Assembly: GCA_034436375.1 (NCBI GenBank)
Contig: DAOTVS010000286.1
Coordinates: 1 to 53,313, forward strand
Reading direction: 5' to 3'
From: Anaerolineae bacterium
GTDB lineage: Bacteria > Chloroflexota > Anaerolineae > SpSt-313
DNA length: 53,313 nt
Position numbers and translations under genes: made by a program. Positions 20,484-20,679 of this stretch are shown piece by piece (position 1 is the stretch's first letter; each line of letters begins with the position of its first letter). The notes under the pieces were generated by a model. It ran no database searches and was not told the DNA's origin. It worked only from the letters and a program-made list of their open reading frames with translations.

Positions 20484-20679
20484 AACGTGAAACGTGAAAC
20501 GTAAAACGTAAAACGTAAAACGTAAAACGTGAAACGTGAAACGTAAGGTTGCCTGGGGGATCGCTGGATGCTTCTGACCGGCTTGCCGAGGTGAGCACCT
20601 TGTAAAGTCATGCGTGCTCCGCTATGACATCCTGACGTTTTACGTTTCACGTTTTACGTTTCACGTTTTACGCATTACG
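20484..20679. repeat. Heptamer-armed palindromic element (copy E20, exemplar)
   Basis: Nine ACGT(G/A)AA units at 20484-20548, an 82-bp core at 20549-20630, and seven inverted units at 20631-20679. AGGAGG and the ychF ATG follow within 14 nt. Confidence 0.9.

Follow-up and report, generated by a model that had tools for sequence, protein, structure and literature searches.

The DNA considered here, referred to below as the window, is a contig of 53,313 nucleotides (DAOTVS010000286.1, assembly GCA_034436375.1) from a bacterium of the Anaerolineae (Chloroflexota), with a G+C content of 64%. Between its vanW and ychF genes lies the exemplar of a family of long palindromes, in which inverted tandem arrays of heptanucleotides, the arms, enclose a core of about 84 bp. 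The 5' arm of the exemplar is made of 9-10 ACGT(G/A)AA units, with the vanW stop codon (TAG, 20481-20483) included, followed by GTAAGG, and on the 3' side AGGAGG precedes the ychF start codon (ATG) at 20694. Tandem Repeats Finder (TRF) reports 9.7 CGTAAAA units at 20479-20546 and 6.6 inverted units at 20635-20680 (plus strand), and the segment 20476-20700 folds with a predicted energy of -96.8 kcal/mol (z = -7.4). The anatomy given for this locus in a preliminary description, made from the sequence alone, is thus confirmed by the TRF arrays, the 82-nt core and the fold.

Members of the family in the window and beyond

Paired GTAA and TTAC motifs with 7-nt spacing occur 43 times in the window, where 0.87 are expected, and eight folded copies have z-scores of -3.2 to -10.9. 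Independent ENA and JGI assemblies contain the same sequences with 99.5-99.9% identity, and therefore the elements are not an assembly artefact. The preliminary description had listed eleven loci with one architecture. A homologous polar core is common to eight of these (1369, 7510, 8833, 18410 inside 18373-18587, 20484, 28289, 30923 and 37183), whereas the loci at 13576 and 35992 have arms only and the one at 6032 is built from a different unit. The fixed core length of 82-85 bp is also roughly right, with 79-84 nt among the homologous window cores and exactly 84 nt from GTAAGG to CCTTAC in three copies. The full elements are listed here, with scores from a covariance model built from the eight window copies:

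1369-1508, plus strand: full element of 140 nt; 5' arm 1369-1396, core 1397-1480 (84 nt), 3' arm 1481-1508
7510-7648, plus strand: full element; 5' arm 7510-7530, core 7531-7612, 3' arm 7613-7648; 100.2 bits
8833-8972, plus strand: full element; 5' arm 8833-8860, core 8861-8943, 3' arm 8944-8972; 106.8 bits
18373-18587, minus strand: nested composite; outer heptamer arms 18373-18409 and 18557-18587 around an inner full element
Inner element of 18373-18587, minus strand: arms 18414-18441 and 18526-18553, core 18442-18525; 62.5 versus 23.6 bits by strand
20479-20680, plus strand: exemplar; 5' arm 20479-20548, core 20549-20630 (82 nt), 3' arm 20631-20680 (about 7 units)
28289-28437, plus strand: full element; 5' arm 28289-28318, core 28319-28401, 3' arm 28402-28437; 106.9 bits
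30923-31098, plus strand: full element; arm 30923-30952, core 30953-31036, arm 31037-31052; 108 bits
37183-37310, plus strand: full element; 5' arm 37183-37211, core about 37212-37290 (79 nt), 3' arm 37291-37310; 73.5 bits

The 1369 element (116.6 bits, z = -10.9) has 57-nt arms that are 82% complementary; its 5' arm consists of CGTAATA/AGTAATG units and ends in GTAAGG, the stop codon of a URO-D-like gene (TAA, 1371-1373) falls within the first heptamer, and 1513-1525 holds the Shine-Dalgarno (SD) sequence and the ATG of the following gene. Upstream stop codons also lie within the arms of the 7510 element (TAA 7519-7521, second heptamer), the 8833 element (TAA 8835-8837, first heptamer) and the 37183 element (TAA 37186-37188, first heptamer), the last of which is the most diverged window copy. 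The 28289 element has livF upstream (stop 28286-28288) and a polar amino-acid solute-binding protein gene downstream, and window copies stand at operon boundaries, those between the liv operon, the polar amino-acid ABC operon and the DUF3604 gene. In the case of the 30923 element, the tail at 31053-31098 is the 3' fragment of a second, outer element (TATGGCGAC...TTTGACG), and directly after the element comes a good promoter-like site (31093-31121, TTGACG-17-TAGAAT) with its -35 box in the last heptamer. The composite at 18373-18587 lies between a conserved minus-strand open reading frame (ORF; 17758-18360) and vanW, that is, between divergent genes, so that co-directional flanking genes, as originally stated, hold for most loci and not for this one; a promoter-like site at 18616-18588 on the minus strand would place it in the 5' leader of that ORF.

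When metagenomes were searched with a pattern of arms and spacing, 37 loci came up, most of them from a single JGI sample. The covariance model recognizes 45 distinct full-length copies (44-117 bits) in contigs of 65% G+C, about 380 kb in all, that come from metagenomes of the same or closely related Anaerolineae and were retrieved because they bear elements; the copies are spread over more than 30 contigs and concentrated in gaps between a stop codon and a ribosome-binding site (RBS). The search for further copies that had been proposed with the preliminary description thus bears out a genuine dispersed family. Elsewhere the same model found no full element: in 630 kb of sequence belonging to other phyla it scored no more than 42 bits, through the arms alone, and in 89 kb of the closest relatives likewise no more than 42 bits. 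YchF homologues carry Anaerolineae or Chloroflexota names, and the nearest one outside the species is only 82% identical. Rfam gives no match in the whole window at gathering thresholds, nor at E<=1 in the segment 18300-20750 with its two elements, and the preliminary description, too, could not place the elements in a described repeat or RNA family; a blastn search of a plasmid collection with one element gave no match, and no description of these motifs, of this architecture or of Anaerolineae repeats was found in the literature. The family is real and, as such, undescribed.

Anatomy and position of the palindromes

The unit measures about 140-146 bp and is made of inverted CGTAAnn arms, often with the 14-mer CGTAATAAGTAAAC twice, a fixed GTAAGG/CCTTAC junction and the polar core of about 84 bp, the consensus order being arms, GTAAGG, tCGCCATtgCGgcatGCCcGaTGCTTtgCG, variable apex, CGaAgAGCAacAtacGCTcCGcaATGGCgA, CCTTAC and arms. 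The core consensus is itself an imperfect palindrome, and the element in its entirety makes a long, imperfect hairpin: 82% of cells are paired, versus 34-44% when the partner column is slid. The polarity of the core is real, as the scores of the two strands lie 15-47 bits apart in nearly all copies after unbiased re-orientation, and the internal-loop sequences on its two sides are not complementary. Arms are present around every core, which never occurs alone and always sits at the hairpin apex. Readings of the element as CRISPR or as tRNA-like were ruled out on anatomy.

In many copies a discrete unit, (ACT)CGTAATAAGTAAACCGTAATAAGTAAGG-core-CCTTACTTATTACGGTTTACTTATTACG(AGT), lies within an outer hairpin of different heptamers. 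For the unit with AAAC-type arms, the nested layout starts with outer heptamers, GTAAGG and TCGCCATG, and continues after the unit with CATGGCGA, CCTCAC and outer heptamers, the stub of the outer hairpin having the same sequence as the terminal 8 nt at either end of the core. A strict regular expression detects nesting in at least 11 of the 37 non-window copies (about 18 by eye), window examples are 18373-18587 and the tail of 30923-31098, and the composite hairpins reach about 250 nt and -137 kcal/mol. The 28-nt terminal inverted arms, the 140-146-nt unit and its discrete ends, (ACT)CGTAATAAG...CTTATTACG(AGT), match the terminal inverted repeats, on a short non-coding unit, of MITEs (miniature transposable elements with inverted repeats). 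The element consists of two separable layers, a heptamer hairpin and a lineage-specific core.

With genes called by a codon-usage gene caller, 35 copies fall in co-directional gaps, eight in convergent and one in divergent gaps, against 165, 21 and 22 background gaps, respectively; the elements therefore mark the 3' ends of genes and are not specifically intercistronic. The original placement between cistrons is correct insofar as stop-to-RBS gaps are enriched, but it does not cover the eight of 44 copies between convergent genes or the divergent one. The observation that the stop codon lies inside or abuts the 5' arm proved sound and extends to the 52 gene ends that face elements: CG stands before the stop in 27 of them (52%) versus 13 of 165 (8%) elsewhere, TAA accounts for 56% of the stops versus 18% elsewhere, and the distance from stop to core follows 9+7k (23 nt in 14 cases, 16 nt in six and 9 nt in five). 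From the CG context, the TAA excess and this phase it follows that the stop codon is usually the heptamer's own TAA. As 7 is not a multiple of 3, three successive units present TAA in all three frames inward from either side, and consequently an upstream ORF ends inside the arm. The SD sequence starts 0-5 nt past the last heptamer in most co-directional cases and, since the other arm thus abuts it, a transcribed element is a very stable stem-loop reaching from the stop codon to the RBS. Canonical elements other than 30923 leave no space for a promoter and must therefore be transcribed within polycistronic RNA.

In co-directional gaps the core has the same orientation as the genes in 15 cases and the opposite one in 19; divided by place, the counts are seven and zero in the window and eight and 19 elsewhere, a heterogeneity for which regional spread or a replication-related bias are conceivable sources. 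A tie between core orientation and gene direction was rejected, as the 8/8 agreement in the window was partly an artefact of a model built on plus-strand copies, and re-orientation by expectation maximization flipped copy 18422.

Imperfect palindromes of similar length directly after the stops of functionally unrelated co-directional genes are also typical of integron attC sites, and the elements could be such sites, or other site-specific recombination sites, marking gene cassettes. However, the consensus contains no GTTRRRY/RYYYAAC boxes, the copies occur in both orientations and on more than 30 different contigs, their neighbours are housekeeping genes and operons whose synteny is kept in relatives, and there is no integrase in the window. 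Orientation and synteny effectively refute this reading, which keeps a negligible probability.

Some loci of the window carry arms of this kind, or similar ones, in other arrangements:

13576-13920, no strand assigned: arms-only relative; CGTAAAA/CGTGAAC array 13583-13650, short inverted arm 13903-13920; between two minus-strand genes
35992-36142, plus strand: arms-only relative; arms 35989-36022 and 36112-36142; unrelated interior with a promoter-like site at 36072-36100
6996-7030, plus strand: half-element; 4-5 CGTAAnn units, then GTGAGG-TCACCATGG; directly after stop TAG 6994-6996; no inverted partner
8318-8346, plus strand: half-element; 3-4 (T)TGACGT units of the 3'-arm type; between a stop TGA and the SD/ATG of a GNAT gene
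6032-6187, plus strand: CACGAAG-type units with weak inverted symmetry; non-member

Neither the covariance model nor a hidden Markov model of the core matches 13576-13920, 35992-36142 or 6032-6187. At 35992 the stop codon (TGA, 36009-36011) is found within the third heptamer, and at 13576 the unrelated interior of about 250 nt contains a second palindrome with two outward-facing near-consensus promoters. That palindrome (13663-13695/13828-13860) carries the sigma-70 promoters TTGACA-16-TATACT on the minus strand and TTGACA-18-TACAAT on the plus strand, together with CACGGATTG 9-mers; the 9-mer is also present twice at 4644-4662. The locus 6032-6187 was ruled out as a family member by its different repeat unit, its coding 5' 'arm' (the stop of an MFS gene lies inside, at 6066-6068) and the lack of detection by the models; it groups with a second arm type, also found at 11335-11421 and in relatives. 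Further inverted tandem arm types after gene ends are CACAAAG/CACGAAG/CGCGAAG and CGCAGAG (11335-11421, 6032-6187, and 6760-7005 and 5200-5445 of stretch L134 of a relative), and tandem-repeat-armed palindromes thus form several unit families in Anaerolineae.

Other features were observed in the window. Directly 3' of the 8833 element, an ABC ATPase domain runs across two overlapping frames (8960-9764; N-terminal part 8960-9394, C-terminal part 9201-9764) and looks like a frameshifted gene or pseudogene. Nested inverted repeats, including GTCATCCTGAGCAACGCGAAGGATCCCG and its complement, occupy 9807-10059 in a 297-nt gap and resemble dispersed repeats. Two sigma-70 promoters with 12/12 consensus positions (21842-21869 and 23278-23306) precede paralogous branched-chain amino-acid binding-protein genes of about 74% nucleotide identity. 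A perfect palindrome of 26+26 nt with a 4-nt centre (43371-43426), just upstream of a Phd/YefM-PIN toxin-antitoxin pair (43488-44224), is probably the operator of this pair. The inverted repeat CATGGGAACTCAT/ATGAGTTCCCATG at 51967-52024 extends across the stop of a GH127 gene and the start codon of the gene after it, and the last gene is followed, at 53231-53295, by a perfect inverted repeat of 27 nt whose arms have a decamer period, GGGACTCATG/GGAACTCGTA.

Signatures of RNA-level and DNA-level processes

Under selection on an RNA helix, G·U mismatches should persist far more readily than A·C ones. In the stems of the copies, the sense-strand excess of G·U expected of an RNA hairpin was not found: G·U and A·C mismatches stand at 94:78 on the sense strand and, in the frame of the element, at 113:105 (core) and 32:29 (arms), with transversion mismatches at about the frequency of transitions. 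Watson-Crick pairing amounts to 62.2% in the core versus 58.9% after shuffling and to 86.3% versus 79.4% in the arms; core pairing is almost wholly explained by the palindromic consensus or column composition, and true within-element matching, compensatory changes at the variable NN positions included, is seen in the arms. Covariation in the core is essentially absent, both with RNAalifold, which predicts the arms only, and with a hand-built hairpin. By the general marks of structured RNA, compensatory changes and preference for G·U over A·C, the element does not qualify, as only its arms co-vary, and there is no sign of a finely selected RNA. The expectation of terminators at these junctions was likewise disappointed, since no U-tract terminator coincides with any element and terminator-like sites in the window equal the shuffled expectation (10 versus 11.6; 14 versus 13.5). 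The 3' arms are followed by an SD sequence or by the stop codon of another gene, which does not fit an intrinsic terminator, and no promoter-like site is found in the canonical cores.

These data bear on the possibility that the core encodes a small non-coding RNA or is a ribozyme- or riboswitch-like structured RNA, with the arms as flanking terminator or insulator. Its polarity, fairly constant length and some conserved blocks would agree with such a role; against it stand the empty Rfam search even at E<=1, the missing promoters and covariation, the median identity of 63% between copies in one genome, the hundreds of copies implied and the absence of the core from close relatives, all of which make this a very improbable explanation.

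A serious but less probable alternative is that selection has kept the entire hairpin as a cis-acting RNA element of polycistronic mRNAs, be it a site of processing by RNase III or another enzyme, a protective 3' or 5' hairpin, a terminator without U-tract, or a stop-to-RBS re-initiation device, that is, translational coupling or 'shunting' over 130-250 nt. Its placement favours this idea, as the stem of most co-directional copies begins no later than the stop codon and leaves 0-5 nt to the SD sequence, the copies are depleted in divergent regions and stand at operon boundaries in a window without canonical terminators above chance, and the position of the hairpin is kept at vanW-ychF across genera; a predicted stability of -97 to -137 kcal/mol, with z down to -10.9, and an arm complementarity above the level of column composition point the same way. 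On the other hand, the transcribed strand has no more G·U than A·C mismatches, and as many transversion mismatches; the core, which occurs in both orientations, is essentially free of covariation, eight copies lie between convergent genes without a downstream RBS, and the closest relatives are mostly without such hairpins at other junctions.

A strand-symmetric mismatch spectrum would also be expected if the arms and the conserved TGCTT/AGCA and GCCATGGC blocks were binding-site arrays for a protein acting on duplex or cruciform DNA, for instance a nucleoid-associated protein, a gyrase-like binder as at BIMEs or a domesticated transposase, the palindrome then reflecting dimeric recognition and not RNA folding. 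Function would not depend on orientation, the arms are far more conserved than the cores, and the CGTAA pentamer and short core blocks are conserved by sequence and not by covariation; moreover, paired inverted hepta- and octamer arrays of Geobacter metallireducens have been annotated as putative global-regulator sites (PMC2700814). Nevertheless, no candidate protein was identified, a period of 7 bp does not agree with the helical repeat, the two arms co-vary at their variable NN positions, which binding to a fixed motif does not need, and the tight abutment to stop codon and SD sequence is left unexplained, so that this option is considered improbable.

Origin, relatives and significance of the element

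Cores at different loci share a median identity of 63% and a maximum of 79%, and a recent transposition or burst was rejected because no such pair exceeds this maximum; cores cluster slightly by arm type (58% identity within versus 52% between types). A comparison of strains that are more than 99.4% identical, as the preliminary description had proposed, found variation in arm length, one strain having three fewer heptamers (21 nt) in the 5' arm of the exemplar, but no presence/absence differences. Hypermutability of the elements was not convincing, with a density of single-nucleotide polymorphisms of 0.24% versus 0.14% elsewhere (7 versus 47).

The vanW-ychF junction is informative in relatives. 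At 82% YchF identity it holds four CGTAAAA/CGTGAAA units per side around a different 55-nt interior, at 78% a GCGTGAT-type heptamer hairpin with a 25-nt loop, and at 80% a gap of only 50 nt with degenerate units. The core is thus present in the window organism and absent at the orthologous site in three relatives with arms or remnants, as expected of a MITE. From this comparison it follows that the heptamer hairpin is old and positionally stable and that the 84-nt core came to occupy its apex later and in one lineage. Given arms without core at an orthologous site and similar arrays in many phyla, described below, the 'one architecture' is best restated as a lineage-specific insert in a generic heptanucleotide-repeat hairpin. 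The metagenome-assembled genome of the closest relative has otherwise few such hairpins, and relatives contain other palindromes with tandem-repeat arms (CGCAGAG and CGCGAAG units) as well as GC-rich perfect palindromes. In the relative GCA_029553955.1, near-perfect GC-rich palindromes of about 80 nt (GGGGTTTTGGCGGGTTGGTTGGCCCTGC...) lie at 2390-2470, 3990-4080 and 7720-7810 of stretch L134; at least two are related copies, and they occupy gaps that hold heptamer elements in the window organism.

The best explanation, held with about even confidence, is that the family is an old palindromic interspersed DNA repeat of the MITE/REPIN/ERIC kind, lodged in slippage-prone heptamer hairpins in a lineage of uncultured Anaerolineae. 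The unit would have spread in the past through DNA-level copying of the MITE/REPIN type and landed at the apex of older heptanucleotide-repeat hairpins directly 3' of stop codons, and the copies would have diverged since. Arm length would change through replication slippage, and the arms would stay complementary through a DNA process that treats both strands alike, for example gene conversion or template switching in a quasi-palindrome, and not through selection for RNA pairing. Any effect of the stem-loop at the RNA level, if there is one at all, would most likely be REP/ERIC-like and independent of orientation, that of a 3'-end or processing hairpin and an insulator between cistrons.

Several observations weigh against this explanation. 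No transposase or RAYT-like gene was found among all 45 window genes scanned, no empty GTAAGG-TCGCCATGGCGA-CCTTAC site occurs in the 380 kb, and near-identical copies are lacking, as are presence/absence differences between the strains. There is no unambiguous target-site duplication; nested copies are flanked as ...CCATG / unit / CATGG..., which is only suggestive and could be a duplicated CATG or simply the two halves of a palindromic target. In the AAAC-arm subfamily the arms are 93% identical and the cores only 58%, which neutral decay of a unit copied as a whole does not predict, and the heptamer hairpin is positionally conserved across genera, more than a purely selfish repeat predicts. 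Conservation of the core is patchy, with TGCTT, AGCA and ATGGCG above 80% and a column standard deviation of 0.16 versus the binomial expectation of 0.07, and this suggests some sequence-specific constraint.

The preliminary description had seen a likeness to STRR heptamers and REP/BIME elements in general concept only, but the heptamers of STRR and of long simple sequence repeats (LSSR), and palindromes of REP/ERIC type, are judged closer than that. ERIC/IRU of Enterobacteriaceae, Yersinia YPAL and the Neisseria Correia/NEMIS elements are palindromic units of about 100-170 bp, and RNA hairpins of the ERIC type can alter the stability of flanking mRNA segments. Like the family described here, ERIC/IRU-type elements are dispersed, imperfect non-coding palindromes of about 130-150 bp in hundreds of copies, located in transcribed intergenic regions in either orientation, often between co-directional genes, and able to form long RNA hairpins. 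In contrast, there is no sequence similarity, the phylum is another one, and the copy-variable tandem heptanucleotide arms, the nesting at the apex of an older hairpin and the arm-supplied stop codon set the present family apart.

REP, BIME and REPIN elements are also extragenic palindromes at the 3' ends of genes, with inverted conserved modules around a less conserved centre and with conservation highest where a protein would recognize them, and propagation at the DNA level through a single-stranded DNA hairpin would fit the strand-symmetric mismatch spectrum of the present family. Liang, Rudd and Deutscher reportedly observed in 2015 that REPs within about 15 nt of a stop codon affect translation termination in Escherichia coli. 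REPs are sequences of 20-40 nt with a GTAG or CGTC tag (PMC3733652). The units described here are of 140 nt with CGTAAnn arrays and have no conserved GTAG/CGTC tag, and therefore are not REPs by this definition; no RAYT (Y1 HUH) gene is present among the window genes.

As for the arms, heptanucleotides are the commonest class of long simple sequence repeats (SSR) in bacteria according to the literature; TAACTGA repeats lie next to start codons in Beggiatoaceae (PMC4679880), and Geobacter metallireducens has paired inverted heptamer and octamer arrays (PMC2700814). Similarities with LSSR and STRR are the tandem 7-nt intergenic units by start or stop codons, the change of copy number by slippage and the widespread but patchy occurrence, and the Geobacter arrays share the inverted pairing; the period-7 arrays reported by TRF and the 21-nt (three-unit) difference in a near-identical strain place the arms in this class. 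Most of the cases on record are direct arrays that lack a conserved insert, unlike the strictly mirrored arrays with in-phase TAA that enclose a conserved 84-nt core, and the STRR unit sequences (CCCCAGT and others) are not present. The cyanobacterial small dispersed repeats (SDR), reportedly described by Elhai et al. in 2008 as sequences of 21-27 nt, are said to be small mobile repeats in hairpin contexts that can nest and are associated with tandem heptameric repeats; they differ in length and phylum, and the comparison is by description only. What is new is the combination of a palindromic interspersed repeat with a heptanucleotide SSR, both of kinds already known.

A scan of GTDB genomes was made with a permissive pattern that forced the GTAAGG motif and retrieved GTAAGGN arrays, not relatives of the core. 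Among the matches listed, mirrored (GTAAGGN)n/(NCCTTAC)n arrays occur in Caldilineaceae, Gemmatimonadota, Acidobacteriota, Planctomycetota, Cyanobacteria, Bacteroidota, Desulfobacterota, Nitrospirota and others. In these same matches, long ORFs terminate most often at the first in-frame TAA of the array, with a ratio of about 24:8:8 for the first, the second and the third, by a rough, preliminary ORF test without proper gene calls, and starts closely follow the other arm. These palindromes abutting gene ends in many phyla suggest a broader, unstudied class. A more far-reaching and unlikely proposal is that mirrored TAA-heptamer arrays are a cross-phylum punctuation of gene ends and that the 84-nt core is a mobile element homing to hairpin apexes. 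If this were true, the arrays would stop translation in three frames from either side and supply the gene's own stop codon, and their folding would set this stop codon beside the following RBS; a host structure and a dedicated parasite or partner, neither yet described, would then be found together.

The two-layer anatomy is a case in which slippage, quasi-palindrome correction and a copied insert would together build hairpins of 130-250 nt, and through it a connection between stop codons and RBSs, spanning a large stem, can be tested. From a practical point of view, the elements are potential strain-typing markers because their arm length varies, and they are a likely source of assembly breaks. 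If their density (8-11 per 53 kb in the window; 45 per about 380 kb of element-selected contigs) holds genome-wide, they would fill a large share of the intergenic space and define the ends of many ORFs in an abundant lineage of uncultured Anaerolineae, with consequences for gene callers and operon predictions.

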